The position numbers were made by a program, and so were the translations under genes. Below the pieces are notes generated by a model. It made no database searches and had not been told where the DNA came from. It saw only the letters and a program-made list of their open reading frames with translations. From NCBI RefSeq assembly GCF_988243305.1, contig NZ_OZ547136.1: DNA of 64,000 nt. One strand, 5' to 3'. Shown here piece by piece: positions 1 through 26,612 of the stretch. Within the stretch, counting starts at the first letter, position 1. Every line of letters starts with the position of its first letter.

Positions 1-49
1 CCGGTAACGATAGTTTGTGTCAGTACATTGTTGCTCATCACTAACCCCC

Positions 50-3000
50 TTAATACAACGTATCCGGTAAACGGAATTGGCTGAACAGACCACCGGTGAA
101 CGGGTTATCTTCGGTATCCACATGCACCCGATAAACCATCGCGCCGCCGTCCACGTTAAAGCGCACGTTAAAGGTGTCACTGGTCACGTTGGTCAACTGG
201 CCCGCGCCGAACAGGCGGAACTGCGCCCACGGTCCACTGAAAGCGATACTGCGCGGTGCTCCACCGCTGGTGCCAACCAGCGTCAGCTTGCTTTCATTGC
301 CTTCACGCATGTTGTTTGGCCAGACCAGATGGGCGGTATAGTTGCGTCCCTGGCTGTAGTCCACTAACTGGCCGTCCAGGTTAAGTACGCTGCGCCGTTT
401 ATTGCCGGAAAGCGACACCGTTTCCACGGCAAATTGTGTGCCCAGCCCGTTCTGCTGGCTGAAGAAGATGTCGCGGATTTTTTGCGCGGTATCCAGTTGT
501 TGTCGGATATCTTCACGGATCAGCACTCTGCCGTCGTCGCCAAAGGTCAGATCGTTTTCAAGGAACAGTCGCAGGTTGTCCTTATAGAAATTGTCCAGAA
601 TGCCATCCGGTTTAAAGAAACGTTCAAACGCATCCAGTGAGGCATCCTGTGAGGCGCGTGGATTAAACGGATAGTTACCGGCAAGCTGTTCGTTGAAGGG
701 TTTCACTACATTGTCGCGCCAGTCCACTTCCATGTAATGAACAGCTTCCACCATCACCACGTGCCAGGCCTGATCCGCCAGCTTGCCCACCCAGCGGTTA
801 AGCGGTGCAGGCAGGGTTTTTGCCATCTGGCGGGTGGCGAAGATTGGATCGCTGCTGTTTTGATCCAGGCGTAGCTGCACTGCTTTCAGCGCCGATTTTC
901 CCGGCACTGGCGAGTTCTGGATCGCCAGCAGGTAACGGTGCAGCTCGGTCAGTTGCTGGTACACGGCCTGTAGCGTACTCGCCTTGTCCTTTTGCTCCTC
1001 CAGTGCGCTGTTTTCCGGTGCGAACTCATGCCCCAGCCGGGACAACAGGCGGTAATCCATCTCATTTATCACCGCTTCCCGCGCCTTATCGTCCAGTTTG
1101 CCGGAGAGCGTCAGCGCGTGTGTATTATCGCGCAGCGCCGTCAGCGCACGCTGGAATGGCTGATCGCCGCTGATAATCTGCTCCAGCGCGTCGGTCAGCG
1201 CCGGCATGGCCTCATAGTCACGGACGTTGAGATTATCCATTCCGGCACGCCATGTAGCGGTATAGTCACTGAGGTACTGTTCAGTGATATGGCGCTGGAT
1301 CTCTTCACGGTCGGCCTCGCTGTAGGCGACGCTTTGCGTCAGGTTCAGCACCCACGAATCCAGCGCGGTCAACTCAACGAGACCGTCGTGTTGTTTGATA
1401 AAATAGCTTTGCAGGCCATAGCGGGTGAGAAACTGCGGGATCACCAGTTTTTCATCATTACCGGCGACGAACACGTTGTCGAAGGTGGGACCAACCTGGT
1501 CGCGCAAATTCAAATCGGCGGGCAACACGCTTAATGCTTTGGTGCGTAGGGTCTGGTAGACACGCTGGTATATCGGCAGTTTGCTCAGTTCATGTTGCGC
1601 ATTAATGACCGGTTTATCATAGGGTGTCCAGCGGCTGATGGCGTCGCTGTCGCCGCTCTGGCGCTGCGCGTGCCAGTCGGTGTGTTCCAGCGCATAGTCC
1701 AGATGTGCCATCAGTTGCGCCTGAATATCACGCTGGCCGTGAAATTCATTGCTCCAGCGCCGCGCCATGTACTGTTTTACCGCCTCGTTGTTGCGCCCAC
1801 TTTTGTCTTCCATCATGCGCACTACGCGCAGCACGGCGAGTTTTTCTTCACTCTCAGGCGGGGCATTGTTCAGATCCCGGATCAGGCCGTTCATTAACGA
1901 GGGGAGATAACGCTGCTCAAGAAGCTGAATGTAGGTTTGTTCCACATATGGCCCTACGCGGACGCCCTGGTACAATCCCATATCCGCCAGAAAACCGTGA
2001 TCGCGGTAATCGCCGTAGGCGAGGGTGGCATCGCGTACCGGGTTGAGTAACGGCAGTTGCAGATTGCCGAATTCATCCTTTCCCTGCGGTGGTGGTACGT
2101 CCATAAAGGCTTTAGCCTGTGCCAGTACGTTAACGCCGGACTGCCAGTTCTGGTTGTAATAATGGTGCCAGCTTCCGACCAGCAATGCCGCCAGTGCCGC
2201 GCCACAGGCGGAAAAGGCGGTCAGCCTGCGCCGGGAGCTGTTCAGCCAGACGCTGTTTTCACCTGCAAGGTTTGGCTCGGCTAGCAGGACTTCCGGGAAG
2301 AGGCGGCGGGTGAAATACGGCGTTGTTTCCACCAGGGGCCAGGTCGCCAGCGAGCTGTTGCCCAGCCCGTACTGGCGGGCGGCGGACTGCGTGAAAATAT
2401 CATCCACCTGGCCGCGCTGTAGCGAGGATGTGAGCCAGACGCCGCGCAGCATCACATCCATATTCTCGCCGTCCAGCAATGCGGCGAGCAGTGAAGTGAC
2501 GATTTCTCCCGTTCCCTGCATCTGACGGGAGAAGCTGAACACGGCGCTGCGTAGCGCAGCACCGGTCTGCACGAGCATCAGGTCTGACAGGGCCAGGTTC
2601 ATCTGTTGTCCCCAGGTCTGCCAGAAGGTGCTCAGCTCGCTGCGCCAGTCATCGTTTTCATGAGCGCGGCGGGTAAACGTGACGCCGAGGATCGCGTCGC
2701 GGTCTTTTTTATCCAGTGAATGGAACAGCGCGGCAAAGCCGGTCAGTAGATCCAGCCGGGTCAGCACCACATAAACGGGCAACCGGCAGTGCAGGCACTG
2801 GCGAATTTCCTGAAGTTGCTGACGCAGATTTTGTACCAGTGCTTCGCGACGGAGTTTATCCGCCGTCAGCAGTTCGGGAAGATCGAGCGTCAGGATCAGA
2901 CCATTGAGCGGCTGGCGTGCGCGCGTTTCCATCAGCCAGCCCAGCCAGTGTTCGCGCAGGCGGCGGTGGAGCAGATCATCCCCGCCGGGGGAGGTCAGTA

Positions 3001-3577
3001 CGCCGTCAACATCGAAAATTACTGCCTGGTTGCCCACTCGCGGTGTGATCAGCGGATGATATTCCACACCCCGGATGCTTTCCGGCATGTAAATAATGTC
3101 AGACGGAAAGCCCTCGCGCAGCAGCGTGCTTTTGCCGCTACCCGCAGGACCAATGACCATATACCACGGCAACTGCCACAGATAACTGCGGTTATCCAGA
3201 TGGCGGCGCAGGCGCAGCAGCCAGTGATCCAAATATTGCTGCTGGTGGTGGAGTTCCACGGTCAACGGATCTTTTTCTTCCTCCCGCTGCTGTTTCTGCT
3301 GTTTTTCCAGCTTTTGCAGACGCTTCATTACCCGCCAGGTGAGCCAGACCAGAGCGATAAGCCCCCAGACGGCGGTCGCCAGCCAGCGGTTTGCCAGCGG
3401 AGCCAGCCAGTGCTGCTCATAGAGCGTCCATTTTGGACCCTGCCACCAGATCCACACCAGCAGAAAAATCCATGCCAGCGCCAGCAGCCAGGCGGCGGAT
3501 ACCTTGAATCGCGGCATCGCTGGCCTGAGCGCAGATCTCAACGAGCTGAACAGTCGGGATGTGGGAAATTTGAACAC
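50..3577 (-). CDS. tssM: Type VI secretion membrane subunit TssM (IcmF family)
   Basis: 1175-aa ORF; N-terminal hydrophobic helices (AWLLALAWIFLLVWIWW); Walker A-like GPAGSGKST; size and position typical of TssM; last gene of the minus-strand T6SS operon. Confidence 0.9.
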   Translation of the reverse strand: MFKFPTSRLFSSLRSALRPAMPRFKVSAAWLLALAWIFLLVWIWWQGPKWTLYEQHWLAPLANRWLATAVWGLIALVWLTWRVMKRLQKLEKQQKQQREEEKDPLTVELHHQQQYLDHWLLRLRRHLDNRSYLWQLPWYMVIGPAGSGKSTLLREGFPSDIIYMPESIRGVEYHPLITPRVGNQAVIFDVDGVLTSPGGDDLLHRRLREHWLGWLMETRARQPLNGLILTLDLPELLTADKLRREALVQNLRQQLQEIRQCLHCRLPVYVVLTRLDLLTGFAALFHSLDKKDRDAILGVTFTRRAHENDDWRSELSTFWQTWGQQMNLALSDLMLVQTGAALRSAVFSFSRQMQGTGEIVTSLLAALLDGENMDVMLRGVWLTSSLQRGQVDDIFTQSAARQYGLGNSSLATWPLVETTPYFTRRLFPEVLLAEPNLAGENSVWLNSSRRRLTAFSACGAALAALLVGSWHHYYNQNWQSGVNVLAQAKAFMDVPPPQGKDEFGNLQLPLLNPVRDATLAYGDYRDHGFLADMGLYQGVRVGPYVEQTYIQLLEQRYLPSLMNGLIRDLNNAPPESEEKLAVLRVVRMMEDKSGRNNEAVKQYMARRWSNEFHGQRDIQAQLMAHLDYALEHTDWHAQRQSGDSDAISRWTPYDKPVINAQHELSKLPIYQRVYQTLRTKALSVLPADLNLRDQVGPTFDNVFVAGNDEKLVIPQFLTRYGLQSYFIKQHDGLVELTALDSWVLNLTQSVAYSEADREEIQRHITEQYLSDYTATWRAGMDNLNVRDYEAMPALTDALEQIISGDQPFQRALTALRDNTHALTLSGKLDDKAREAVINEMDYRLLSRLGHEFAPENSALEEQKDKASTLQAVYQQLTELHRYLLAIQNSPVPGKSALKAVQLRLDQNSSDPIFATRQMAKTLPAPLNRWVGKLADQAWHVVMVEAVHYMEVDWRDNVVKPFNEQLAGNYPFNPRASQDASLDAFERFFKPDGILDNFYKDNLRLFLENDLTFGDDGRVLIREDIRQQLDTAQKIRDIFFSQQNGLGTQFAVETVSLSGNKRRSVLNLDGQLVDYSQGRNYTAHLVWPNNMREGNESKLTLVGTSGGAPRSIAFSGPWAQFRLFGAGQLTNVTSDTFNVRFNVDGGAMVYRVHVDTEDNPFTGGLFSQFRLPDTLY

Positions 3578-3596
3578 AGTAACTCCTTGTTATCTT

Positions 3597-5039
3597 TTAC
3601 TGTTCTGCCGTGAATTTTTGTTCCAGTGCTTTCAGCAGGGAAGGCTCCCATTCGGGTAGCATCATGTGTAAGCCTGTTTTGAAGAGCATCCGGTACTGCT
3701 GTTGTGCAAGCTGAACCATACCGGCTTCTTCCAGTAACTGCGCGCCGAAAAATTGGCGATGAAACTGGTTACGGGGATCACCTTCGGGCAGGTTTTCCAG
3801 ATACCGCAGCGCGGTTTCCAGCCCGTTCTCATCGAAGCACGCCCTGGCCGCCTGTAATTCTTCATCGGTCTGTACAGCTGCTGCGGTTTGGTTGCCTGAG
3901 CCCGATGGTGCCAGCCACTGTTTCGTCTGTTCGGACACAAACGGAGTGCGGTCGTTAAACAACAGGTTGATCAGTGCGGGCAGGCGAGCAAGAAAACTGG
4001 TAACTTCATCACGGATAGCATCCGCCACCTGTATATAACCAAGGCGCAACGCGGTCTGTGCTGAGAGGTAATGGCCGTCCAGCCAGTACGGGGCCAGCAG
4101 CAGGCTTTTTTCCACCTGCTGCCAAAGCGCCATGTCGGCATTGTTCAGTCGCGCCAGATAGTCATCCATCATATCTACAGGGAAAGCAGCCAGAGGGGTC
4201 CGGCCATCGCTTTCTGCCTGCGGGGTACTGGTGATGGTCTGCCACAGCGCATGGCGGCGCAGGCGGTAACCCAGCGGTGACTCCGGCTGACGTTCACAGA
4301 GAATGGCGGCTACCTTCAACAGGGTGTCGCGCCATGCTTTATCATCGTGGCTGTCCACGGTGACCTGCGGGATTGGAGTGGCTGCAACAGGAGGCTGAGC
4401 GGAAACTGTGTGCGGTAACATATCCGGTGCAGATCCGGTCGTGGCCTGCGGCGCAATGGCGGCGGTTCGTGCAGATGATGGCATTTCAGGCGCTACATCA
4501 CGAAACGCGCGCTGAAACAGAGTAAATAAATCGTCTGTCGCCTTAGCCAGCTCAGGCGCGTTGTGCGCCTGCCAGCACAGTGCCAGTTTTGCCAGCTCTC
4601 CCAGCAAAGCATCGCGCTGTGTTGTCACAGCATTCCCGGCAAAGTCATGAATGGCCGACTCAAAGCGTTTTATCACTTGGGTGGCGAAGCGTTTTTTGTG
4701 GGCCATGTTCTGCGGCGCGGCGCATGTCCAGTAGTGCTCTGTATATTGTGTCAGTATCCTGGAGGCCAGCAGAATATCACCGGCATGTTGCAGGGTACGC
4801 AGCAGGTGGGCCAGCAGGCGAAAATCTTTGGTTTCTGAGGCCAGAAGCATCAGGCCCCGGCGCTGAAGTTCGGGGATATCAAGCTGGCTGTGCGCCAGTG
4901 AACCGAGCTTGACGATTTCGCTGTCGATAAACTCCCAGTCTGCATTGCCATCATCAAGCGCGGCGGACAGCTTATCTTCCGGCAGGTTTTCCAGCAGGTG
5001 TGCAAGCCATATATCAGGATTACGTAAGTCCATTGCCAT
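3597..5039 (-). CDS. tssA: Type VI secretion protein TssA (ImpA family)
   Basis: ORF track gives 3597..5105; preferred start is the ATG at 5039 (MAMDLRNPDIW...), which has an AGGAGA Shine-Dalgarno 8 nt upstream on the minus strand and avoids overlap with the upstream gene; about 480 aa. Confidence 0.8.
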   Translation of the reverse strand: MAMDLRNPDIWLAHLLENLPEDKLSAALDDGNADWEFIDSEIVKLGSLAHSQLDIPELQRRGLMLLASETKDFRLLAHLLRTLQHAGDILLASRILTQYTEHYWTCAAPQNMAHKKRFATQVIKRFESAIHDFAGNAVTTQRDALLGELAKLALCWQAHNAPELAKATDDLFTLFQRAFRDVAPEMPSSARTAAIAPQATTGSAPDMLPHTVSAQPPVAATPIPQVTVDSHDDKAWRDTLLKVAAILCERQPESPLGYRLRRHALWQTITSTPQAESDGRTPLAAFPVDMMDDYLARLNNADMALWQQVEKSLLLAPYWLDGHYLSAQTALRLGYIQVADAIRDEVTSFLARLPALINLLFNDRTPFVSEQTKQWLAPSGSGNQTAAAVQTDEELQAARACFDENGLETALRYLENLPEGDPRNQFHRQFFGAQLLEEAGMVQLAQQQYRMLFKTGLHMMLPEWEPSLLKALEQKFTAEQ

Positions 5040-5043
5040 ATTT

Positions 5044-5787
5044 TTATTCTCCTGCCCAGTGGCAGGCGTCGCGTAGCGGCGCAATAACCCGCGCCAGCCC
5101 GTCAATGTTAAAGGTCAGCTTTCCGGCAGCATTGTCTGTGCCGGTATCAACCGTCAGTGTTTTAGCAGCGAATAGTTGCTTAATTTCATCAATACCGGAT
5201 AACCCCCGGCTGGACTCCAGCAGGGTGCCGTTCTCGCGCACAAACCAGTGGCTGCGCAATGCCCGGCTGTCGGCATTCAGGGTGACGGCGATATCATGGA
5301 CATCCAGAGGATGCATCAGCGCCACCTGCATCCGGGTGATATTGTCCACGCAACTGAACATCAGCACCGGGCGCGGCGGAACATGACCGATAGCCGGGGT
5401 GGTTATCACTACCGTCGGGCGTTCACCCGGCACCTGCGTCACCAGCAGCTCTGTGGTGCTGCCCTGGCGGCGTTTTTCCTGCTCTGTGGCGCGGGTCCAG
5501 GCTTCGCCCACAAAGCTGGCTTTGACCAGTGCGGCGTTGCCGAAGCCGGGCTGTTCCGGTGCAAGAATGCGGTCATAACAGTCAAGCCGCTCCAGCGCCG
5601 CAGATTCCCGCCGACAGGACTGCATGGCCTGTAACGTGGCTGTCGCATCCGGCGGGGGCGTGGTGGCGACGGCGACCGCCGCACCGGCCATTGACGATGT
5701 TTCTGCGGGCGCGGCACTGGCGGGTAAGCCCGCCATCAGGCCCGCGATAAACCATCCTGCCTGCCGGAAAACGCGCAACCTGCTCAT
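5044..5787 (-). CDS. T6SS-associated exported protein (VasI/TagO-like); family assignment tentative
   Basis: 247-aa ORF embedded between clpV and tssA; N-terminal signal-peptide-like segment (FIAGLMAGLPASAAPA); 4-nt overlap with the clpV stop suggests translational coupling. Confidence 0.5.
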   Translation of the reverse strand: MSRLRVFRQAGWFIAGLMAGLPASAAPAETSSMAGAAVAVATTPPPDATATLQAMQSCRRESAALERLDCYDRILAPEQPGFGNAALVKASFVGEAWTRATEQEKRRQGSTTELLVTQVPGERPTVVITTPAIGHVPPRPVLMFSCVDNITRMQVALMHPLDVHDIAVTLNADSRALRSHWFVRENGTLLESSRGLSGIDEIKQLFAAKTLTVDTGTDNAAGKLTFNIDGLARVIAPLRDACHWAGE

Positions 5788-8516
5788 AAAACCGTTTCAT
5801 CCTTTGTGACAAACTCGTCGTCCTGAGCATCTTCCACGTCTGCCGTGAACGCGCCGTCTGCCGCCGACAGGCGGATACGGGCAATCGCCGTGTTGGCTGC
5901 CATTTTCTGCAACAGCAGCAGCGAGAGCGGCGGCAGCATGTCGCCATCGATGACCGATTCCAGCATCCTCGCGCCGTTTTCCGCGCGGGTGACGCGGCTC
6001 ATGATTTCGTCCGTCACTTCCGGCTCAATAATCACGTCCGCGCCAAAGCGGCTGCGCAGCACGTTATCCAGACGGGCCAGTTTCCCGGCAATAATGGTGG
6101 CGAGCGTCTCTTTCGACAGCGGCAGGTATGGCACCACTTCCATACGCGCCAGCAGCGCCGGTTTAAAGAAGTCCGCCAGCACCGGATAGAGCACTTCCTG
6201 CATGGTTTCCGGGTCATCGGCGTGTTCGACAATCACCTGATAACCAAGGTTGGAGGTGAGGAAGAAAACGATGTTTTTACAGTCAATCAGGCGGCCTTCG
6301 CCGTCTGCCATCTCGCCCTTGTCGAACGCCTGGTAGAACAGGTTGAGGACATCCGGGTGCGCTTTTTCCACTTCATCGAGCAGCACCACCGAGTAGGGTT
6401 TCTGGCGGATCGCTTCGGTCAGTACGCCGCCTTCGCCATAGCCGACATAGCCCGGAGGGGAGCCAATCAGCCGCGAGACGGTGTGTTTCTCCTGGAACTC
6501 GGACATATTGATGGTGGTCAGGTACTGGCGACCGCCGTAGAGCAGCTCTGCCAGTTGCAGGACGGTTTCGGTTTTACCCACGCCGCTGGGGCCAGCCAGC
6601 AGGAACGCGCCGAGCGGGCGTCCCGGACGGCGCAGGTCGGCGCGTGCGGTCAGCAGGTGTTTATGCAGGCTGGCAATTGCCAGGTCCTGGCCTTTGATGG
6701 TGTCACCAAGCCACTTCGGCAGGTCGGTGATGACCGACATTTCATTCTGCGACAGGCGGTTAAGCGGTACGCCGGTCCATTCGGCAATCACCGCCGCAAT
6801 CTGTTTTTTATCGACGTGCGGGGAAACCAGCAACCGGTCGTTATGCAGGGCGTCCAGTTCGGCAGTGAGTTGTACTAGCTGCTGCACCGGGGAAACTGTT
6901 TCAGCGGTCTCTTCCGGCTGTGTACTGCCCGCATCATCAGCCGGTGCGGTACCGGTATTATCCTGTTCTGACTCTGGCGGCGTATCCACTACGGCATCTG
7001 TGTCCTCTGTCACACCCAGCAATAGCTGGCGCAGCGCGATAATTTCCCGTACCAGCTTCTGCTGCTGGTGCCAGGCCGCTTCCAGTTCATCCAGCGCCGT
7101 CAGCGTTTCATCGTACTGCACCAGCACCTCAGTCATCCGTGAAGTGTCGGTACGCAGCCCGATGCGAAGCTCGCGCTCAAGCTGGCGAATTTCCGCCTCC
7201 TGCTGGTGGCTCAGGGTGGTCAGCGCCGAGATTTGCTTCGGTGGCGATGACAGGTTGATGGCCACACGGGCGCAGGCGGTATCCAGCACATCAATGGCTT
7301 TGTCCGGCAACTGACGCCCGGAGAGATAACGCTCGCTCAGCGTTGCTGCGGCCTGCAAGGCGTCATCATCAATCAGCACGCCGTGAGACTGTTCATAGAC
7401 CGCCGACAAACCGCGCAGAATAATGGTGGCTTCGGTGGCGTTGGGTTCGCTGATCTTCACTAACTGGAAGCGGCGCGACAAAGCTGCATCTTTCTCGAAG
7501 TATTTTTTGTATTCGCTCCAGGTTGTGGCGGCGATGGTTTTCAGTTCGCCACGCGCCAGCGCCGGTTTGAGCAGGTTGGAGATATCCAGCCCGCCCTGCT
7601 GGTTGCCCGCGCCAATCAGAGTATGTGCTTCGTCGATAAACAGAATGACTGGCACCGGAGAGGAAATGACCTCCGCCATCAGCCCCTTGAAGCGTTTTTC
7701 AAACTCACCTTTCACCGACGCACCGGCCTGTAATGCGCCCAGGTCAAGGGTCATAATATCGGTGTTTTTCAGCTTGTCCGGCACCTGGCCTGAGACAATA
7801 CGCAGCGCCAGCCCTTCGATTAAGGCACTTTTACCCACACCCGCTTCACCCACCACCACCGGATTGTTTTTACGACGGCGGCAGAGAATGTCGATCATCA
7901 GGTCGATTTCATGGTCACGGCACAGTACAGGGTCAAGTTTGCCGTTACGGGCATCTTCGGTCATGTTTTTGGCGTAGCGGGCAAGCCCGCTGTCGCCGGT
8001 TTCAGGCGTGCCGGGTGCCTGTCCGCCAACCTGGTTCACGGATTCGGCGGACTCTTTAGTCCATGACGCGAAATCCTGCTGTAACTGGTCGCGGTTTATG
8101 GCCGTCAGCAGACGGGCAGCAGCGGGTGGAATATAGCGCAGCGGTGAATGCAGCAGAGCCAGCAGCAGCACGCCGCCGCGTAGTTCGCTGTGCTGCATCT
8201 GGGCCGAGGCCAGCAGCCATGACTCCTTGAGCCATTCGACCAGCATCGGGGAGAAGCTGGGATAGCCTTCGGCGGAACGTCCGCTGGGATAACTCTCCAC
8301 GGTCAGCGCCTGGCGTAGCTCCTCCGCACTGATGCCTGTGCGTTCGGTAATTACCCTTACGTCGTTGCGCGGGATAGACAGCATCTGCAACAGCACATGG
8401 GCAACGGTGATCTCACTGGCCTGCTGGCTCATACACTCCGAGGCAGCCATTTCCAGCGCCTGTTTTGCAAAGGGGTTAAGCCGCTTTACCAGCGTGGCTA
8501 AATCAATCTGGATCAT
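5784..8516 (-). CDS. clpV: T6SS AAA+ ATPase ClpV (TssH)
   Basis: 910-aa ORF with two AAA+ modules: Walker A GEAGVGKS and GPSGVGKT; Clp N-domain-like N-terminus. Confidence 0.9.
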   Translation of the reverse strand: MIQIDLATLVKRLNPFAKQALEMAASECMSQQASEITVAHVLLQMLSIPRNDVRVITERTGISAEELRQALTVESYPSGRSAEGYPSFSPMLVEWLKESWLLASAQMQHSELRGGVLLLALLHSPLRYIPPAAARLLTAINRDQLQQDFASWTKESAESVNQVGGQAPGTPETGDSGLARYAKNMTEDARNGKLDPVLCRDHEIDLMIDILCRRRKNNPVVVGEAGVGKSALIEGLALRIVSGQVPDKLKNTDIMTLDLGALQAGASVKGEFEKRFKGLMAEVISSPVPVILFIDEAHTLIGAGNQQGGLDISNLLKPALARGELKTIAATTWSEYKKYFEKDAALSRRFQLVKISEPNATEATIILRGLSAVYEQSHGVLIDDDALQAAATLSERYLSGRQLPDKAIDVLDTACARVAINLSSPPKQISALTTLSHQQEAEIRQLERELRIGLRTDTSRMTEVLVQYDETLTALDELEAAWHQQQKLVREIIALRQLLLGVTEDTDAVVDTPPESEQDNTGTAPADDAGSTQPEETAETVSPVQQLVQLTAELDALHNDRLLVSPHVDKKQIAAVIAEWTGVPLNRLSQNEMSVITDLPKWLGDTIKGQDLAIASLHKHLLTARADLRRPGRPLGAFLLAGPSGVGKTETVLQLAELLYGGRQYLTTINMSEFQEKHTVSRLIGSPPGYVGYGEGGVLTEAIRQKPYSVVLLDEVEKAHPDVLNLFYQAFDKGEMADGEGRLIDCKNIVFFLTSNLGYQVIVEHADDPETMQEVLYPVLADFFKPALLARMEVVPYLPLSKETLATIIAGKLARLDNVLRSRFGADVIIEPEVTDEIMSRVTRAENGARMLESVIDGDMLPPLSLLLLQKMAANTAIARIRLSAADGAFTADVEDAQDDEFVTKDETVL

Positions 8517-8525
8517 AAGATGTCC

Positions 8526-9299
8526 TTATCGGAGTAATTTATTGAGCTGATGCAGAATATCCTGTGTCTGGCTGTCCAGACGCAGCAGATAAAACAGATA
8601 AAATACGGCCAGCACAACAAGACCGCCGCACATTACATGCCTGATGGTCAGCCGCCGGATTAACTGATAACGCCCGCCCTGTATGTTGTTCTTCTGGTGA
8701 AGCAGCGGAAATGGCGCGTCACCGCGCAGTTTGTGCAGGGCATGGTGCAGGCGCTGGTAGATCCGCTCAAATTCATCCTGTTGCTGAATGGCAACCTTGT
8801 AGCGCCCGCGAAAGCCGAGCGAAAAACAGAGATATAAAAATTCCAGCAGATCCTGGTAACGTACCGGCTCCCGGATCAGGCGTTCGAGCAGGATAAACAC
8901 TTTCTCGCCGCCCCAGGCTTCGTTATGAAAATGAACCAGCAGCGACTGTTTGATCCATTCGTTTTTGTTGGACCAGCCGTTGCCCAGCGCCGCTTCGTCA
9001 ATAAACGTGCAGAGAATGTAGCGGAACGAAACAATGACGCCCGGCTCGTAACCCTGCTCCTGGAGTAGTTGTTCCACAGCCTGGACATCGGTTACCACCT
9101 GGGCAAACAGATGTTCCGGCATGGCCTGGCTGTTCATGGTGGACAGACGCATCACCATGCCGAGCAACGGCGTGGCGGCGTCAATCATTGGGTTCAGGCT
9201 GTTGCCGCGAAGGGCGAGACGATACTGACGTCCTGATGTTCCGCTCTCCGGCTCCATGGGAAAAACCGACGGTTCACCCATATCGCTGATATCGCTCAT
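8526..9299 (-). CDS. tssL: T6SS membrane protein TssL (DotU family)
   Basis: 257 aa; C-terminal transmembrane helix (GGLVVLAVFYLFYLL); position between tssK and clpV. Confidence 0.85.
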   Translation of the reverse strand: MSDISDMGEPSVFPMEPESGTSGRQYRLALRGNSLNPMIDAATPLLGMVMRLSTMNSQAMPEHLFAQVVTDVQAVEQLLQEQGYEPGVIVSFRYILCTFIDEAALGNGWSNKNEWIKQSLLVHFHNEAWGGEKVFILLERLIREPVRYQDLLEFLYLCFSLGFRGRYKVAIQQQDEFERIYQRLHHALHKLRGDAPFPLLHQKNNIQGGRYQLIRRLTIRHVMCGGLVVLAVFYLFYLLRLDSQTQDILHQLNKLLR

Positions 9300-9303
9300 T
9301 CAC

Positions 9304-10650
9304 TTATCCCCTTATCGCCCAGAGCTGAAGGTTCAGATCGGGGAAGGTGCCGGAGATATGCAGCGCCAGCGCGCCCGCTTTTATCACGTCCTGCCAGGCT
9401 GGGGTGCCTTTTTCCAGTTCGAAGTAAACATAACCTTCATGCCAGGGCAACTGACGCGGCGCAGCGGTAAGCGTGTGCAGCGGAATACCCGGCACCTGCA
9501 CGCTGACCACGCTGCGGATTTTGTCGGTAGCGGCCACTTTCGACTGCTGGATGAACTGGCGCTGCACCTGGTCGTAGGGCATCCTGGCGCGCACTGCCAG
9601 TACCAGCTTGCAGGACTGCAACAGTGTGGGATCGCTGATGGTGGCGATCCAGGTCCCCTCTGAAAAGAACAGCGGCAGATTCTGCGCACGCGGTACCAGC
9701 ACGGTATTGAGTGCGCGCCGCAGTTCCGGAATTACTGTTCTGGTGAAGGTCGCGGTAAGATCCCGGTGATTATACGGCTCCACGGTGCAGGGCAGGCGAT
9801 TACCTTCGGTGAAGGTCATCAGTTCTCCCAGCAGCCCCACCAGATCCCGGTAGAAGGCTTCCGGATGCAGCGTGTGCAGTTGGGAACGATGCGTGAACTG
9901 CATTTGATGGCGGTTAAGCATCTGCAACATCATAAATTCGGCCACATCGGCGATCCCGCTCTGTTCAGGCGAACCGATGCGCCCGGCCAGGTCGGCGGCG
10001 CGGGTGGCAAGTAGCCCCTGCACCTCGCCGGAGAATGCCCCGAGCAACCCGCTGACACGGACGGCCTGAATGGTGGGAATAAAGGTGTTGTCCAGCACCA
10101 GTGCGCCGGTAGCATTTTTATTGAGGATACGGCACAGGGGGAGGGTCACCATCGCGCTGAGATCATCTGCGCCGCTGACTATCCTGGGGATCAACTGCCC
10201 CAGACCGACCGGCTGTTCGTCGCCTTCGTCAGTGTGAAAATCACGGACGCGGGTATGGGTGAGGCGGTAACGTTCCGTGCCCTGACCGGCGCTGTGCAAC
10301 CCCTGGATTTCATTGATCACGTCGCTGATTACAGGCAGTGCCAGATAAATATTGTGGCTCTCTTTCGATGAAAGGGTTCCCGGCTGGAAAGGTTCCGGCA
10401 GCAGATCCTGGTCGGGAATGCTGAATACGGTGCCGTCAGGCATACAGCCCGCCGCACGGTCAATCATGATTTTGCCCTGGGCAAGCAGTTCGGTATTGAT
10501 GGAGAGTTCTGTAAAGCCCCAGAAAAAATCACCCTGAGCATCCAGACGACGGGTCAGCAGGTACTCGCAGTGACGCTGCTGTTGCTGAAAATGCTGCGGC
10601 AGGGCAAACAGCCCTTCCTGCCAGATCACCTTGTTTTTCATTGTTGCCAT
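9304..10650 (-). CDS. tssK: T6SS baseplate protein TssK
   Basis: 448 aa; N-terminus VIWQEGLFALPQHFQQQ typical of TssK; start could instead be the ATG 9 nt downstream (MKNKV...). Confidence 0.85.
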   Translation of the reverse strand: MATMKNKVIWQEGLFALPQHFQQQQRHCEYLLTRRLDAQGDFFWGFTELSINTELLAQGKIMIDRAAGCMPDGTVFSIPDQDLLPEPFQPGTLSSKESHNIYLALPVISDVINEIQGLHSAGQGTERYRLTHTRVRDFHTDEGDEQPVGLGQLIPRIVSGADDLSAMVTLPLCRILNKNATGALVLDNTFIPTIQAVRVSGLLGAFSGEVQGLLATRAADLAGRIGSPEQSGIADVAEFMMLQMLNRHQMQFTHRSQLHTLHPEAFYRDLVGLLGELMTFTEGNRLPCTVEPYNHRDLTATFTRTVIPELRRALNTVLVPRAQNLPLFFSEGTWIATISDPTLLQSCKLVLAVRARMPYDQVQRQFIQQSKVAATDKIRSVVSVQVPGIPLHTLTAAPRQLPWHEGYVYFELEKGTPAWQDVIKAGALALHISGTFPDLNLQLWAIRG

Positions 10651-10652
10651 CG

Positions 10653-11177
10653 TCAGTTTTCCTCTTTTTTCATCTCAATCGCACTGGCGCGGATATGCAC
10701 CAGCAGGCGATAGTGGTGGCCGATACTTTCTACCGGCTCAATTTGTTTCCATTCTGTGGCCTGATCGTCTGAAAAATAGGCAATGACACCGATATAACCG
10801 GTTTTCTCATCCAGCTTGATCGGCGGCAGTGTTTTTACGGTGTCCGGCAACAGGTTGAAGTCCTGGTGATCGATATAGTTCTTCCCCAGCACGTCGGGCA
10901 GCGCGGTGGTGGCAATCTGATCGTAATCGGCGGCCTGGAATTTGGAGTCGTCGCTCAGATACACCAACTGGACATCCACCGGCGCGGCTTCGCCGTCCGC
11001 CGTCAGGTTGCTGTCCGGCTCGGTCAGCAGCGTGACGGTCAGTTCGGTTGACTGCTCCATCAGCTTTCCGACCTGAATATCCGGATTGCGGATCACTTGG
11101 CTGATTTTTTTCGCTGTTTCACAGCCAGTTAACACAACGCTCATCAGAACGCAGGCCAGAAACGCTTTGCCGTTCAT
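10653..11177 (-). CDS. tssJ: T6SS outer-membrane lipoprotein TssJ
   Basis: 174 aa; signal peptide with lipobox LTGC. Confidence 0.85.
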   Translation of the reverse strand: MNGKAFLACVLMSVVLTGCETAKKISQVIRNPDIQVGKLMEQSTELTVTLLTEPDSNLTADGEAAPVDVQLVYLSDDSKFQAADYDQIATTALPDVLGKNYIDHQDFNLLPDTVKTLPPIKLDEKTGYIGVIAYFSDDQATEWKQIEPVESIGHHYRLLVHIRASAIEMKKEEN

Positions 11178-12466
11178 GCTTCCGGCTCCCGCTGTTTTTC
11201 GCGCAGCACTCGGTCATAGACCTGGGCATAAACTTCATTGAACAGCATTTCAAATCCCTGCTGTCGGCTGGAGGCCAGTTCATCGTAATAGTTGCTGTAC
11301 ATCTGCCATGCCCAGGCGTTGTCCATTTTCTGGCGCAGCTCATGGCTGCGGCGGTATTGCGCAAAGCGGCGCATCAGGTTGCCCGGCGAGAAGGCGTCCA
11401 GCATGACACGCAACGCTTCCACAATCGCCGCCCGGTTGGCCTCTTCATGATGCCGGATGTTGCGCAGGCTTTCGGCGATGGCCGCAGGTGCTGCGAGATG
11501 TACCGGGCTTTTACCCTCGGCGAACATGACGTTCAGCGCGGTGGCATAGTCCATATCAAGGCGCAACGGGTTGTCTTCCAGTGGACGCAGGTGTTTATCC
11601 GACAGGCTGTTCTGTTGTTGTTGCAGACTCAGCAATCCCTTAATGGCGGCCTGCAACGCCCGTCCGGCCTCTTCGAGAAACTCATCCGCATCCTGAGAAT
11701 TGTGCAGCGTCAGCGGACACTCCATACCGCGCAGCAGCGGGGTTACGGCCAGGTGGTACTGCGCCATGGCAGAAAATTCATCGCCGTCCTCATGACGGGC
11801 ATTGCCGGGTGGCAGATCCATAAACGGCGTGTTGATCCCGTTTGCACCTGTCAGATCGGAGGCGGTGGCAACGGGCCGGGAAACGCGTGGGGCGATCGGA
11901 TCATCTGCCACCATCAGGCTTTCCGTCTGGAGTGCCTGGAGCGGATCGCTGGAAAAACCGTGCGCCACCGTGGGGGCAAGCTGATGCTGGAACGGCATTC
12001 CCGGATACGCCGGTTGTCCCTCGGTGGTCAACAGGGTGTCCGCCAGACTGTCGCGGTTCATTACAATCGTTTCCGGGGTCGCCATCCGCTCGTCATAGGT
12101 AACAGCTGCACCGTCATGCAGAAACACTTTCAGCGCCAGTGCGCCGAGCTGGATCTCATCCCCCTGGCGCAGGCGGATGAGCGCATCGGAAGAGACCGGG
12201 GCCAGATTAATCATCAGTCCCGGCGTCAGGCACCGCAGGCAATAGGCTCCGTCGTGCCGGATAACGGTACAGGCACGCGCAGCAATGCTTCCCGCCCGGT
12301 CCTGTACCTGCCAGTGACATTCCGGCGTATGGCCAATATCACCGCCGTTTTCGCTGAACAGGCATTTTGCGGCGCGTCCGCTTTCCAGTTCGTTGCCATT
12401 CATCACCTGTAAAGTCAGTGAGGCCTGGCGGGATTGCTGTTTTTCCTCAGCCATAAGTGGTTCCAT
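11174..12466 (-). CDS. tagH: T6SS-associated FHA-domain protein TagH (Fha)
   Basis: N-terminal FHA-like domain (...IGHTPECHWQVQD...CTVIRHDGAYCLRCL...GDEIQLGALALKV); ORF track start 12616 is probably too far upstream; preferred ATG at 12466 (MEPLMAEEKQQ) lies 5 nt from the tssG stop. Confidence 0.8.
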   Translation of the reverse strand: MEPLMAEEKQQSRQASLTLQVMNGNELESGRAAKCLFSENGGDIGHTPECHWQVQDRAGSIAARACTVIRHDGAYCLRCLTPGLMINLAPVSSDALIRLRQGDEIQLGALALKVFLHDGAAVTYDERMATPETIVMNRDSLADTLLTTEGQPAYPGMPFQHQLAPTVAHGFSSDPLQALQTESLMVADDPIAPRVSRPVATASDLTGANGINTPFMDLPPGNARHEDGDEFSAMAQYHLAVTPLLRGMECPLTLHNSQDADEFLEEAGRALQAAIKGLLSLQQQQNSLSDKHLRPLEDNPLRLDMDYATALNVMFAEGKSPVHLAAPAAIAESLRNIRHHEEANRAAIVEALRVMLDAFSPGNLMRRFAQYRRSHELRQKMDNAWAWQMYSNYYDELASSRQQGFEMLFNEVYAQVYDRVLREKQREPEA

Positions 12467-12470
12467 AGAA

Positions 12471-13520
12471 TTATTCCCTGATTCGGATTGTGATGGCGGG
12501 CGGTACTTTCGGCTGACCAATAAAGCTGGTTCTGCCGAGGCGGGAGCTGGCCGGATCGCCAAGGTGCATCCCTTTAGCCTGCTGTGGTGCCAGGCACAGC
12601 CGTAAATCCCAGGCAAACTGGTCGCGCAGAATAAAGGAAAGGAACATGGTCAGCGGCAGGTGATTTTCGCCATCGGGTAAAAATGAGAGATAACGCTCCC
12701 GCGACAGGCCGCCAATCTGCAACAGGAATTTTCCGCTGCGATCCGGCACCCGTGCGCCGAGGGTAAAATTAACGCCGAGTATGGAGCGTCCCGGAATATG
12801 TCCAGCCGTTTTTCCTTTCGGATTACGTACACCCAGCCGGTTCTGGTGTGCCGGATCAATGGCGACTTTACGCAGTTGCCAGCGTTCAATGGTGACATCC
12901 GGCAAATCAAAACAGTGCGACACAAGATTACAGATGACCTCCGGCGCGCGGCCTGGTGTTGCCAGAATTCCGGCGTAGGCCAGCATTTTGCTGTGGTTAA
13001 TGGCAAGCCTGTCACGCACGCTCTGATTACCCAGCCCGACCAGTGCGTACATGCGCTGTGAAAAGGTGTCAGTACCGCCGTTACGAAAGCAGATGTAGTA
13101 GCGGTATTTGCGCCAGGCATGATAGGCAAACTGTGTCCAGCGGTGGCTGAATAGATCGAGAAATTCTTTCAGGCCGTCTTCGTTCTGTGCGGACTCCTGC
13201 GCCATCTGATCCAGATAATAGCCCGGTAGCGGCGACTGGCTGCCGGAAAAACCCAGGAACCGGGTTTGCAGTACATACTGTCCGTTCTGGCTACGGGAAA
13301 GCGCACTCAGGTCCGTACCCGGAAAACCGATACTGGCGTCAGAGCTGAAACGCACGATCTCCCGGGCAGGCTCGGTACGCAGGGAAATGTCCTGGCCCGG
13401 CGTGCCATACCGACGGTACAGCGCCTCCATTAGCACATAGAAATTGCAGTTGCGCACATCCGCCGGTAACGGCGGTTTTGCCGCTATATCAGGGCGTGCT
13501 GGCCCATTTTCTCCTGCCAT
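12471..13520 (-). CDS. tssG: T6SS baseplate protein TssG
   Basis: 349 aa; operon position between tssF and tagH; the 37-nt overlap with tssF means the true start could be the internal ATG at 13430. Confidence 0.8.
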   Translation of the reverse strand: MAGENGPARPDIAAKPPLPADVRNCNFYVLMEALYRRYGTPGQDISLRTEPAREIVRFSSDASIGFPGTDLSALSRSQNGQYVLQTRFLGFSGSQSPLPGYYLDQMAQESAQNEDGLKEFLDLFSHRWTQFAYHAWRKYRYYICFRNGGTDTFSQRMYALVGLGNQSVRDRLAINHSKMLAYAGILATPGRAPEVICNLVSHCFDLPDVTIERWQLRKVAIDPAHQNRLGVRNPKGKTAGHIPGRSILGVNFTLGARVPDRSGKFLLQIGGLSRERYLSFLPDGENHLPLTMFLSFILRDQFAWDLRLCLAPQQAKGMHLGDPASSRLGRTSFIGQPKVPPAITIRIRE

Positions 13521-15343
13521 TCCCAGGACTCCTGACTTTCCGTGTTAATGATTTTCAGACAGTGATACGAATTGATGCTGGCGTAGAGGGCAAAAAAGTG
13601 CGAGAGCACGGTACCCAGAAGATAAATTTCACCTTCGCAGATAAACGGATCGGGACGTATCCACAGCGTGGTCGCCAGCCCGCGAACCGGTACGCCTTTA
13701 AACAACCTGTCAACAGGTTTGGTTTCGAGTTTTTCTATGGCATCCAGTTTCTGGCGTGACAGTCTGGCCCGCTGCGGATGGTGAGCACCCGGCAGGTCGA
13801 AGGTCCGCAGGATCTGGATCAGTGTCTCCCTGTCCAGCAGGGAGAGGTAGTTCAGGTTCATCGCGGAAATCAGCGACCAGTGCATGTCGCCGTCCGTGAC
13901 CGGCCAGAGCGGTTGTGTCGGGCGCGTAACATTATGAAATGAGGCCACCGCCGGGTTTTTGTTGACGGCCACGCAGATATCGCCGGTATGCAGCCGGGCA
14001 GGGATCATACGGTTGGTACAGATTAATGACGTGGTGATCACATCATCATTAAACCGTGAGCTGTCCGGAATGCTGCCGTCCGCATGGACAAAGGCGATGG
14101 AATGTTCAAGCCCATGGTGAAGCAGGGACGTTTTAGTCCGGTGATGCCAGTAGACGACTTCCCGCTGGCGGCTGTACTCCATCTGGTGCTGGAAACTTTC
14201 AAATTCGGGCCAGACACGCACCTGGCTGCCGGGGCTGGAATCAGTCCCTGAAACTTTGATTTTACTGGTGACTGTGCTGACCTGAAAAATGTCATAGGCG
14301 TCCGGATGCTTATGGCTGGCGCGCAGCGGGTATTCCGCCATCCGCCCATCCGGCCTGACGGGTTCCGCATAATGCGTAAACAGGTTAATGGCTGGCGTAC
14401 AGTGCAGACGCAGCGAATCCTGGCGCAGCTTGATGTCGGCAGGTAATGGGCGGTTAAAGTGCAGGCGCAGCGTAAACGCACTCACCGGGAAATCGTCTGG
14501 TAGCGGCGCAACATCGCGCAGATGGAAAAAGAAGAAGGCTTCGGGATAGCAGAAATACTCCTGAAGCACGCGGTAGCCGTTGTGGACATTTTTCGGCCAC
14601 GGCAGCAGGGCATCCTGGTTGTCAAAACCCGCAGCATCCAGCCACAGATCCGGCAGCGGCAGGCTGTGCTCTCCGGCAATCAGTTCCGCATCCATCAGGC
14701 ATTCGCAAAACCACAGATAAAGCTGGTGTCGGGTATAATCGTCTTCATTACCCAGCCAGAACGTGATTTTGTTCAGGTCAAGCATGGCGGGGGAGACATT
14801 GTTATCTGCGGTAAAACTGATATCTATGATGCCTTCTTTCAGACTGCTGGCGTTGCGGGTGTCGAGAATGCGCAGCGGTTGCAGCCAGATATCGCGCGCC
14901 AGCGTGAAATGGCAGGCTACGGAAGAAACGATTTTATCATGATTGTCAGCCAGCACCTTCTGAGCAGCCGGGGAGGACTTTTCTGATCGGCTTCTGATCA
15001 GTTCATTACGGCAGACCTGAACAGGGACTTTTAACTGATCGGTTTTGGGTTCATAGGCAATAACCGTCATGGCCGGAACCGGGCGTAAATAGTTTGCCCA
15101 CAGCATACGGATCAGCCCATGGGTGAATTCGGGAAATTCGTCTTCAAGTTTCTGGCGCAGGCTACCGGACATAAAGGCAAAGGCTTCCATCAGTCGCTCC
15201 ACATCCGGATCACCCTCTTTCTCGGCCAGAAAATGGGCCAGATGCGGTTTTTCCTGCGCCAACAGTTTGCCAAGCTGGCGCAGATAATCCAGTTCTTCGC
15301 GGTAGTAACGTTCTTCAAAAGCCACAGAGATCACTCCACACAA
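13484..15343 (-). CDS. tssF: T6SS baseplate protein TssF
   Basis: 619 aa; N-terminal EERYYREELDYLRQLG motif typical of TssF. Confidence 0.85.
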   Translation of the reverse strand: MCGVISVAFEERYYREELDYLRQLGKLLAQEKPHLAHFLAEKEGDPDVERLMEAFAFMSGSLRQKLEDEFPEFTHGLIRMLWANYLRPVPAMTVIAYEPKTDQLKVPVQVCRNELIRSRSEKSSPAAQKVLADNHDKIVSSVACHFTLARDIWLQPLRILDTRNASSLKEGIIDISFTADNNVSPAMLDLNKITFWLGNEDDYTRHQLYLWFCECLMDAELIAGEHSLPLPDLWLDAAGFDNQDALLPWPKNVHNGYRVLQEYFCYPEAFFFFHLRDVAPLPDDFPVSAFTLRLHFNRPLPADIKLRQDSLRLHCTPAINLFTHYAEPVRPDGRMAEYPLRASHKHPDAYDIFQVSTVTSKIKVSGTDSSPGSQVRVWPEFESFQHQMEYSRQREVVYWHHRTKTSLLHHGLEHSIAFVHADGSIPDSSRFNDDVITTSLICTNRMIPARLHTGDICVAVNKNPAVASFHNVTRPTQPLWPVTDGDMHWSLISAMNLNYLSLLDRETLIQILRTFDLPGAHHPQRARLSRQKLDAIEKLETKPVDRLFKGVPVRGLATTLWIRPDPFICEGEIYLLGTVLSHFFALYASINSYHCLKIINTESQESWEWQEKMGQHALI

Positions 15344-15756
15344 TAGCGTTGATGGTTGTCCAGCAAAATGTCAAATTCAAACACTCCCCTGGTCTCGCTG
15401 ACATCGATCGTAGCCACAATATGAAAACGCAGTTCCACAGGGGCGTATTCATCCGGTGCCGCAGCCGTAACAACAACATCGGTAATACGAGGTTCGTAAT
15501 GTAAAATGCACTGGCTAATGGACTTACGGATTTCTCGTCTGAAATCGCTGGAGGCCAGCGATTCATCATTTAAATCAGTAATCCCCAGCTCCGGTGAGCC
15601 ATAACAACTGCCGGAGCGGGTATTCAGGACCTGTCGCAGGTTACGTCTGATGGAACGTATCAGTGCTTCTTTTGGATTCTGATATGAAGGCGGATTTGCC
15701 GCCTCACGGATACGTTCAAAAAGACTGCCGGTTGGTCCTGAATCCCGTCTTTGCAC
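15331..15756 (-). CDS. tssE: T6SS baseplate protein TssE (gp25-like)
   Basis: 141 aa; gp25/GPW-like small baseplate protein downstream of tssC. Confidence 0.85.
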   Translation of the reverse strand: MQRRDSGPTGSLFERIREAANPPSYQNPKEALIRSIRRNLRQVLNTRSGSCYGSPELGITDLNDESLASSDFRREIRKSISQCILHYEPRITDVVVTAAAPDEYAPVELRFHIVATIDVSETRGVFEFDILLDNHQRYCVE

Positions 15757-15760
15757 CGGA

Positions 15761-17245
15761 TTATTCCTTATCCAGTCGTCCGACCAGGCTCAGGTCGAAA
15801 CTGGCACCCATGTATTTAAAATGCGGTCTGACAGAAATCGCGACCTGGTACCAGCCCGGCTCACCATCCACATCCAGTACCTCGATCTTAGCCTGACGCA
15901 AAGGCCGGTGGCTGCGGACTTCGGCAGGCGGATTTTCCTGGTCAGCAACATACTGGCGAATCCAGGTGTTCAGCTCACGCTCCAGGTCACTACGTTCTTT
16001 CCATGAGCCAAGCTGTTCGCGCTGAATTACCTTGATGTAATGCGCTAACCTGCTGATAACAAACAAGTATGGCAGCTGGGTGCCGAGTTTATAGTTGGTC
16101 TCCGCAGCCTTGCCTTCGGGGGTTTTGGGGAATGTTTTGGGTTTCTGCACCGAGTTGGCCGAGAAAAAGCACGCATTATCAGACCCTTTACGCATGGTCA
16201 GTGTGATAAAGCCCTCTTCCGCCAGCTCATACTCTCTCCGGTCAGTGATCAACACTTCAGTCGGAATTTTTGCCTGCATTTGCCCCATGGATTCATACAG
16301 ATGCACCGGGAGGTCTTTGACTGCGCCGCCGCTGGAAGGGCCAATAATATTTGGGCACCAGCGATACTTAGCAAAACTTTCCGCCAGGTTGGCGGCCAGT
16401 AAAAACGAGGTATTCCCCCACAGATAAGACTCATGACTCTGGCTGACATCTTCATGGTAACGGAAGGTTTTGACAGGGTTTTCATCCGGTGAGTAAGGGT
16501 GGCGCAGCAGGAACCGGGGGGCGGTCAGGCCCAGGTAACGGGAATCTTCCGATTCACGCAGGGCGCGCCAGCGGGAGTAGGCCGGGCCTTCAAAGATGGC
16601 ACCCGGTTCTTTGATCCCCGGTAACTCTGTCCATGAATCCAGACCGAAAAATTCGGATGATACTGACGACAGGAACGGGCTGTGCGCCATCGCGCTGACC
16701 TGGCTGATATATTTCAGCAACTTCATATCCGGCGTGGTGTTCTTAAAGGCAAAGTTGCCGATTACCGCCGCCACTGGCTCACCGCCAAATTGTCCGTAAC
16801 CGCTTGAATATACATGCTTGTAATACGCAGACTGCGTGATTTCAGGTGCAAATTCGAAATCATCCAGCAGTTCTTCCTGAGTGACATTCAGGAAATGGAC
16901 TTTGATGTTTTCCCGTGTATCCGCGCGTTCAACCAGCAGCTTCAGCGAGCGCAGCAGGGATTCCAGTTCCTGAAACTCCGGGGCATGAATAATGGCATCC
17001 ATCTGCCTGCTGGTTCGGGCATCAATATCAGCAATCATGGCGTCAACGGCCAGGATATTGATAGGTTCAGCGCTACTGTCGCCCTGTAACATGGCGGCAA
17101 TAAAGGCGCTCACGCCCTGGCGGGTGATATCGTAGCTTTCTGATTTAGGCTGGACGCGGGTTTGCGCCATGATTTCATCAAGCAGAGATGGGGGCGCGGC
17201 GGTTTGAGACGCGCTGACGGGAGCAATTTCTTCCTTTACTGACAT
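15761..17245 (-). CDS. tssC: T6SS contractile sheath large subunit TssC (VipB)
   Basis: 494 aa; size and sequence character of TssC; follows tssB. Confidence 0.9.
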   Translation of the reverse strand: MSVKEEIAPVSASQTAAPPSLLDEIMAQTRVQPKSESYDITRQGVSAFIAAMLQGDSSAEPINILAVDAMIADIDARTSRQMDAIIHAPEFQELESLLRSLKLLVERADTRENIKVHFLNVTQEELLDDFEFAPEITQSAYYKHVYSSGYGQFGGEPVAAVIGNFAFKNTTPDMKLLKYISQVSAMAHSPFLSSVSSEFFGLDSWTELPGIKEPGAIFEGPAYSRWRALRESEDSRYLGLTAPRFLLRHPYSPDENPVKTFRYHEDVSQSHESYLWGNTSFLLAANLAESFAKYRWCPNIIGPSSGGAVKDLPVHLYESMGQMQAKIPTEVLITDRREYELAEEGFITLTMRKGSDNACFFSANSVQKPKTFPKTPEGKAAETNYKLGTQLPYLFVISRLAHYIKVIQREQLGSWKERSDLERELNTWIRQYVADQENPPAEVRSHRPLRQAKIEVLDVDGEPGWYQVAISVRPHFKYMGASFDLSLVGRLDKE

Positions 17246-17267
17246 ACTGAAAATCCTTCTGTGAAAA

Positions 17268-17771
17268 TTATTTCTGAACGGCGATACCCAGTTCCTGGAT
17301 CAGCTGCTCGCGGCTGTCTTCGTTTTCCAGTAGCGCCTGAAGTTGTGCGCGGAAGGCCGGAATATTGCCTAGTGGAGACTTAAGTGCGACCAGTGCCTCA
17401 CGCAGCTCCAGCAGGCGCTTTATTTCCGGCACCTGACTGGCAATATGGTCAGGAGAAAGGTCATCCATAGATTTGACTTTCAGGTTGACGTACATTTGCT
17501 CATTGGGAGCGTCACTGAGTTCAGCCGGAACAACAAACTCCCGTTCAATGTCAGCTTCTGAAATGACTGCGTTGAGGTTATAGCGGTTGATAGCAATGGC
17601 AGTTCGCTCATCCAACGGCGTGTTATCTGGTTTCCCTTTCAGATTGCCGGTGATCAATAAATTCAGCGGCAATTCGATATCAGCAGCCACCCCATCAACT
17701 TTTGGTGTATACCGAACGCTGATTCTTTCTTTCGGCGCGACACTGCCGCCATTGTTGTTCATTTTGCTCAT
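17268..17771 (-). CDS. tssB: T6SS contractile sheath small subunit TssB (VipA)
   Basis: ORF track 17268..17822 starts at a TTG; preferred start is the ATG at 17771 (MSKMNNNGGSVAPKERISVRY...), giving about 167 aa; first gene of the operon. Confidence 0.85.
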   Translation of the reverse strand: MSKMNNNGGSVAPKERISVRYTPKVDGVAADIELPLNLLITGNLKGKPDNTPLDERTAIAINRYNLNAVISEADIEREFVVPAELSDAPNEQMYVNLKVKSMDDLSPDHIASQVPEIKRLLELREALVALKSPLGNIPAFRAQLQALLENEDSREQLIQELGIAVQK

Positions 17772-25799: not shown

Positions 25800-25864
25800 T
25801 TTTTAAATTGTGTGATTAAATAATTGAACATTAATGATGATTTATAGCATCATTATTCTATAAC

Positions 25865-26377: not shown

Positions 26378-26409
26378 TTAATAACATAATTACTGCAAAT
26401 AATATCGTA

Positions 26410-26612
26410 ATTTTGAAAATGGTAATCCTGTTCACGACACCATAATTAGAGTTATGTCTTGTATCCGTTCAGTATAATTTCACGAATGCTTTATTAACTG
26501 GATGCGAGATTGCCATTCATCAAATGATAAAGACGTCATCGCAATTGATGGAAAAGCGCTTCCACACTCCTATGATAAAAGTGGTCGCAGGAGAGCGGGC
26601 TTTCGTAGTCAT
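26410..26612 (+). mobile_element. Second, shorter ISAs1 (H-repeat) transposase remnant
   Basis: About 180 bp at roughly 85% identity to 24491-24672 (encodes ...FENGNPVHDT...[29 protein letters not shown]...), joined directly to H-repeat 3'-end-like sequence (GGGCTTTCGTA). Confidence 0.6.

Follow-up and report, generated by a model that had tools for sequence, protein, structure and literature searches.

The vasI (tagO) gene of an Escherichia coli type VI secretion cluster and a probable periplasmic accessory role for its product

The open reading frame (ORF) analyzed here occupies positions 5044 to 5787 on the minus strand of a 64,000-nucleotide stretch of contig NZ_OZ547136.1 (RefSeq assembly GCF_988243305.1), hereafter the window, and lies within a type VI secretion system (T6SS) gene cluster. 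The ORF truly belongs to the VasI family, and the gene is vasI (tagO). We hold with moderate confidence that its product is a Sec-exported, disulfide-stabilised periplasmic accessory protein, probably docked on the TssJLM membrane complex, where it would raise the efficiency of effector delivery; within this reading, export stands on far firmer ground than docking. The gene call in itself is already known, vasI being a routinely annotated T6SS accessory gene. Newly described here are the signal-peptide-like N-termini and four invariant cysteines found family-wide in VasI, and a vasI-tssA-tssM gene order that persists in relatives sharing only 25-35% identity.

A VasI/TagO-like identity had been proposed for the ORF in an original prediction on context and size only, together with a profile hidden Markov model search against T6SS accessory families as a means of checking it. 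Such a search has now been run and confirms the identity. TIGR03360 (NCBIfam "type VI secretion system-associated protein VasI", an equivalog model) matches over its full length (profile 1-187 of 187) with 262.8 bits against a cutoff of 124.2, and PF11319 (Pfam; VasI, EvfG, VC_A0118) matches amino acids (aa) 58-244 with 183 bits against a cutoff of 26.5 (E=5.6e-54, profile 2-184 of 184). In a 100%-identical E. coli chromosome the gene is labelled vasI by RefSeq (WP_072647992.1), and close relatives in a large protein collection carry the NCBI name VasI or TagO; since NCBI uses both names within the family, we treat them as synonyms. PF11319 was formerly DUF3121, and the family includes VCA0118 of Vibrio cholerae. 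It is a small family, as a HMMER scan of 1.84 billion cluster representatives returned only 285 VasI representatives at E<=0.001. The family-wide statements below refer to an alignment (A1) of 85 full-length VasI members, which share 23-91% identity with the query. The gene and the parts of its product are as follows (pLDDT, predicted local distance difference test).

5044..5787, minus strand: coding sequence of vasI (tagO), 247 aa plus stop, an ATG-to-TAA ORF; TIGR03360, PF11319; RefSeq vasI, WP_072647992.1
5713..5787, minus strand: predicted Sec signal peptide, aa 1-25, with R3/R5/R8, the h-region AGWFIAGLMAGL and a P-A-S-A c-region (sequence and hydropathy)
5647..5712, minus strand: Ala/Pro/Thr low-complexity linker, approximately aa 26-47, variable in length among relatives (pLDDT 56-62, no predicted secondary structure)
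5056..5616, minus strand: conserved VasI domain, aa 58-244, with predicted helices at about 48-105 and an IalB-like beta-sandwich at about 115-241

The 247-aa ORF proposed originally is found as 247 codons at exactly 5044..5787, to which we add the strand (minus) that had not been given. A chance ORF is ruled out by the 263 bits to TIGR03360, the 183 bits to PF11319 and a ratio of nonsynonymous to synonymous substitutions (dN/dS) of 0.16, calculated against the allele of E. coli GN02350. The corresponding values are 0.14 for tssH and 0.23 for tssA, and because vasI lies near both, it is under ordinary purifying selection. Its GC content is 62% (69% at third codon positions) compared with 52% for the whole window, and an AGGA is located about 12 nucleotides (nt) upstream from the ATG. 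The internal starts Met18 and Met33 were ruled out, as the relatives keep the full N-terminus with the signal peptide and RefSeq starts at Met1. The plus-strand ORFs that cover vasI (5000-5386, 5248-5634 and others) were treated as shadow ORFs of this 62% GC gene.

A signal-peptide-like N-terminus, also part of the original prediction, is readily recognised. The sequence MSRLRVFRQ-AGWFIAGLMAGL-PASA/AP, where the slash denotes the cut, carries three arginines in the charged n-region, a hydrophobic core of 12 residues and an Ala-X-Ala site (A-S-A/A), so that cleavage is predicted after A25; inspection of the N-terminus for a lipobox cysteine and for a twin-arginine motif revealed neither. The feature is not confined to the query. 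A crude, heuristic signal-peptide rule is satisfied by 72 of the 85 diverse members, and most of the 85 have obvious Ala-X-Ala sites ahead of the first conserved cysteine, although across the family the stretch preceding that cysteine can be anywhere between about 18 and 72 residues long. In the alignment the residues Cys58, Cys70, Cys146, Cys242, Arg67, Asp72, Trp181, Gly195 and Trp244 are invariant, and all are present in the query. Four cysteines that are invariant across a family are typical of oxidised periplasmic proteins. The earlier suggestion of an exported periplasmic accessory protein is therefore backed for the export, by the signal-peptide-like N-termini and the invariant cysteines, whereas the accessory role is argued for below in conditional terms. 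What the family shares with the query is the size class, the signal peptide, the four invariant cysteines and a position directly upstream from a VasJ-type tssA and tssM; the enterobacterial clade differs from the other members in that its Ala/Pro/Thr linker, which follows the signal peptide, is longer.

This position is the second feature that holds over large evolutionary distances, well outside the enterobacteria. Five VasI loci of 25-35% identity with a visible downstream neighbour were compared, one further contig showing none. A VasJ-type (ImpA_N+VasJ) tssA lies directly downstream from vasI in all five, and tssM comes next in three of them, while in the other two the contig end cuts the next gene. 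Upstream the loci are less uniform, with vasH, encoding a sigma-54 activator, directly preceding vasI in 3/5 and clpV in 1/5, the latter as in E. coli. The E. coli cluster differs from the vasH-bearing loci in having no vasH between clpV and vasI, and for this reason vasI overlaps clpV directly. The junctions and neighbours in the window are these.

5784..5787, minus strand: start codon of vasI overlapping the stop codon of tssH/clpV as ATGA (junction sequence)
5784..8516, minus strand: tssH/clpV, 910 aa, upstream neighbour of vasI (TIGR03345, 1122 bits; RefSeq tssH)
3597..5039, minus strand: tssA (ImpA_N + VasJ type), downstream neighbour of vasI (TIGR03362, 452 bits, PF16989; start as given by RefSeq and the Prokaryotic Genome Annotation Pipeline, PGAP)
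50..3487, minus strand: tssM, third gene of the vasI-tssA-tssM block (TIGR03348, 946 bits; RefSeq coordinates mapped from the 100%-identical chromosome)

The placement between clpV and tssA that was noted originally is thus correct, with all three genes on the same strand. As for the coupling to clpV that had also been claimed, the 4-nt overlap is present, and from it translational coupling can reasonably be inferred. On the other side, 4 nt separate the TAA of vasI from the PGAP-annotated ATG of tssA, and the ribosome-binding site of tssA, GGAG, is located within the 3' end of vasI.

The cluster as a whole has the order tssB-C-E-F-G, tagH, tssJ-K-L, tssH, vasI, tssA, tssM. Profile matches show the neighbours of vasI all to be T6SS core genes, namely tssM, tssA (ImpA_N + VasJ), tssH/clpV, tssL (DotU only), tssK, tssJ, tagH (FHA), tssG, tssF, tssC and tssB, followed by divergently transcribed hcp and vgrG. 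In the 100%-identical E. coli chromosome the cluster runs on with a gene for a VasL-domain protein and another hcp gene, adjoining dnaQ and tRNA-Asp. We take this to be the aspV-associated "T6SS-1" of E. coli, organised like the vas cluster of V. cholerae. Its tssL (8526-9299, minus strand) encodes a short, DotU-only TssL without an OmpA-like peptidoglycan-binding extension, and in the two related loci where TssL could be seen it is likewise short and DotU-only (262-269 aa). The NCBIfam/PGAP name given to this TssL, "type IVB secretion system protein IcmH/DotU", is slightly misleading for a T6SS. Neither profile scans of the window nor the RefSeq annotation revealed TagL-, TagN- or TagP-like genes in the cluster.

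What is known about the function of VasI comes from V. cholerae. The literature that we found consists of a single functional study (PMC3166118) and a set of proteomics data (PMC6565705), with PMC5371669 only naming the gene; no further functional study of VasI, TagO or DUF3121 turned up in a survey in which most papers were judged by titles and abstracts, the remaining papers looking like mentions in gene lists or annotations. In the systematic mutagenesis of strain V52, loss of VCA0118 left Hcp expression and the secretion of both Hcp and VgrG-1 at wild-type levels; the mutant was nonetheless avirulent to Dictyostelium, with amoeba killing abolished, gave weaker actin cross-linking in macrophages and was attenuated in E. 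coli killing, roughly to the level of a clpV mutant (PMC3166118). The authors of that study termed VCA0118 a "putative effector", pointed to its predicted export and did not settle its role (PMC3166118). In targeted proteomics of V. cholerae 2740-80, VasI was stable once translation had been blocked (PMC6565705). Its abundance, approximately 1200 copies per cell, is to be compared with about 1100-1290 copies of TssL, 1500-1630 of TssJ and 2100-2290 of TssM, and it is well above that of the baseplate proteins TssE/F/G at about 150-590 copies per cell (PMC6565705 source data). A deletion phenotype on Hcp secretion had been suggested originally as a way of assessing the gene. Since the VCA0118 mutant secretes Hcp normally, a negative Hcp result would not refute a T6SS role of vasI, and Hcp secretion is the wrong assay for the role considered here.

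A confident model of VasI was predicted with AlphaFold2 from alignment A1 (mean pLDDT 86.1, predicted template modelling score 0.70). Residues 1-47, comprising the signal peptide and the linker, are of low confidence. They are followed by helices at 48-58, 64-75 and 95-105, a beta-sandwich of about ten strands at 115-227 and a short C-terminal helix. The first two helices contain Cys58 and Cys70, one strand contains Cys146, and Cys242 comes just past the C-terminal helix. A Foldseek search of the model placed six chains of 3dtd (IalB, the invasion-associated locus B protein, from Bartonella) on top, with probabilities of 0.99-1.0 and target TM-scores of about 0.6, the rest being noise. IalB differs from VasI by not having its N-terminal helical region and by not occurring in T6SS clusters, and no sequence similarity between the two is detectable, the structural alignment giving 10-14% identity. 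A Pfam scan of the 85 members at E<=1 returned VasI only, that is, no IalB, OmpA-like, LysM, other peptidoglycan-binding or enzymatic domain. The second fold relative is probably the N-domain of MotY, to which VasI has no sequence similarity either; MotY has an extra OmpA-like peptidoglycan-binding C-domain, and according to Pfam VasI does not. In the periplasmic ring, N-domains of MotY assemble into a head-to-tail polymer that is wedged between FlgI and FlgT (bioRxiv 10.64898/2025.12.04.692373). Because there is no sequence link to IalB or MotY and the likeness is at the level of the fold only, we do not file VasI as a member of the IalB family.

Putting this together, the VasI precursor would be exported by the Sec pathway and cleaved after Ala25, and the mature protein, of about 22 kDa, would adopt its fold in the periplasm, with a short helical region and an IalB/MotY-N-like beta-sandwich of a docking type, the four invariant cysteines stabilising it as two disulfides. 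VasI would lie outside the minimal firing machine, as a periplasmic accessory at about the copy number of TssJ/L/M, and its docking site would most likely be the TssJLM membrane complex, on the side facing the periplasm, or the cell-wall surroundings of that complex. Docked there it would increase the efficiency of effector delivery into targets per firing event, and not tube expulsion as such, and VasI itself would not be a toxin. A role of this kind fits the signal peptide, the fixed place in a structural operon, the copy number, the phenotype of normal Hcp secretion with poor killing, and the fold relatives.

A number of points weigh against this proposal. Docking on TssJLM is something we infer, from the fold and from the published V. 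cholerae data. The phenotypes stem from V. cholerae, where VasI is in the 24-35% identity range, and not from E. coli, and a copy number near those of TssJ, TssL and TssM is suggestive only. The two disulfides, with Cys58 plausibly paired to Cys70 and Cys146 to Cys242, are putative. The fold match is moderate, with 119-121 aligned residues at the low identity given above, and both the VasI protein and the 85-member profile, when compared with all PDB sequences, gave no match even at E<=10. Chain 8z5n_A (270 residues, from the Vibrio polar flagellar LPHT ring) is probably MotY, an assignment based on the chain length only. Finally, the mechanism and the location of IalB are themselves disputed (PMC6299047), and for this reason the fold likeness transfers little function to VasI.

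The phenotype of the V. cholerae mutant, being one of reduced efficacy rather than lost secretion (PMC3166118), would also be expected if VasI were a periplasmic sensor or regulatory input that helps to decide when or where the machine assembles, one that would resemble the Pseudomonas TagQRST envelope sensors in role though not in sequence. Such a function would go well with export, as indicated by the signal-peptide evidence, with the position directly after vasH in most of the relatives (3/5 loci) and with the presence of the FHA protein TagH in the cluster. We nevertheless regard a sensor as unlikely. VasI has no transmembrane segment past the signal peptide and the cluster offers no kinase or transducer partner, E. 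coli retains vasI even though it has no vasH at that position, Hcp expression was unchanged in the V. cholerae mutant (PMC3166118), and about 1200 copies per cell is a high number for a sensor (PMC6565705).

The authors of the 2011 V. cholerae study suggested instead that the protein acts on target cells, either as a secreted T6SS effector or as a surface adhesin (PMC3166118). Loss of killing with intact secretion of Hcp and VgrG-1 is indeed a classical effector-like phenotype (PMC3166118), and an adhesin could be thought of in view of the nearest fold, since IalB is invasion-associated and part of it has been reported at the cell surface or in supernatants (PMC6299047). T6SS cargo, however, leaves from the cytoplasm without a Sec signal, and almost all VasI relatives carry one. 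In addition, vasI resides in a structural operon by tssA and tssM and not by vgrG, hcp, PAAR, adaptor or immunity genes, and TIGR and Pfam scans of VasI, the latter extended to the 85 members, found no toxin or enzyme domain. The mutant is also weaker against amoebae and bacteria alike, which a single toxin is not expected to explain (PMC3166118). We consider a role on target cells very unlikely, and the periplasmic accessory remains the reading that we prefer.

The gene itself is common in the species, as vasI is present in 2834 of 5426 complete E. coli genomes, every match listed being annotated vasI. The present allele is rare: identity of at least 99% was found in 3 genomes, the bulk of the matches being at 90-95%. 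The same picture is obtained with the 5.1-kb tssA-vasI-tssH stretch, for which 3 complete E. coli genomes are at 99% or above, 25 at 95-99% and 2815 at 80-95%. Synonymous divergence (dS) from a common allele is about 0.14-0.23 for this stretch, and the closest named VasI proteins outside E. coli are those of E. albertii (89%) and Pseudocitrobacter faecalis (88%). As the allele is rare and diverged, the sequence comparison suggests that recombination brought in the T6SS-1 core (window 1-17822) from a divergent Escherichia lineage.

The cargo module of the window is unlike that of an otherwise near-identical (99.9%) strain, while vasI is unchanged between the two. This bears on the notion that VasI is a periplasmic immunity or self-protection protein directed against periplasm-acting effectors of the cell itself or of its sisters, which we find most improbable: many T6SS immunity proteins are small, exported, periplasmic and beta-rich, and VasI is exported, but such genes are strain-variable and travel with their effector by vgrG or PAAR whereas vasI holds the same core-operon place even in distant taxa and stays unchanged when the cargo is swapped, and the V. 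cholerae mutant loses prey killing, with no self-killing phenotype reported (PMC3166118).

Two further observations concern the fate and the borders of the cluster. In several E. coli database proteins (P0034-P0036, P0050, P0053 and P0057), VasI residues 1-200/215 are fused to IcmF_C (the C-terminus of tssM), IcmF-related or VasL domains. Given the gene order vasI-tssA-tssM-vasL, these fusions look like internal deletions of tssA and most of tssM, and if so they would represent decayed T6SS-1 clusters in some strains. The plus-strand ORF 25865-26377 matches the PFL_4695 family of integrating-conjugative-element proteins (TIGR03765, DUF2859); it has the T6SS cargo region on one side and, on the other, the core genes ivy, fadE-like, gmhA-like (SIS), yafJ-like and yafK-like. 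The ORFs beside it, 25296-25799 and 26502-26990, are without a family match, and the region 25296-26990 (plus strand) may be a mobile-element remnant at the edge of the island.

A periplasmic accessory docked on TssJLM could have a more specific task, which we put forward as a tentative and rather doubtful extension. In V. cholerae-type T6SSs, VasI may be a stoichiometric periplasmic subunit that braces TssJLM against the envelope via its IalB/MotY-N-like docking domain. The VasI brace would thereby replace peptidoglycan-anchoring extensions or TagL-like partners, which are apparently missing from these clusters, TssL here and in the related loci seen being of the short DotU-only type of about 250-270 aa. 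If true, the VasI, IalB and MotY-N folds would together be a single ancient family of modules by which envelope machines dock in the periplasm. The fold link to IalB and probably to MotY-N, the invariant cysteines, the tight linkage of vasI with tssA and a copy number close to those of the membrane-complex proteins give a testable docking-subunit hypothesis for this conserved gene of the T6SS core operon in V. cholerae/E. coli-type clusters.
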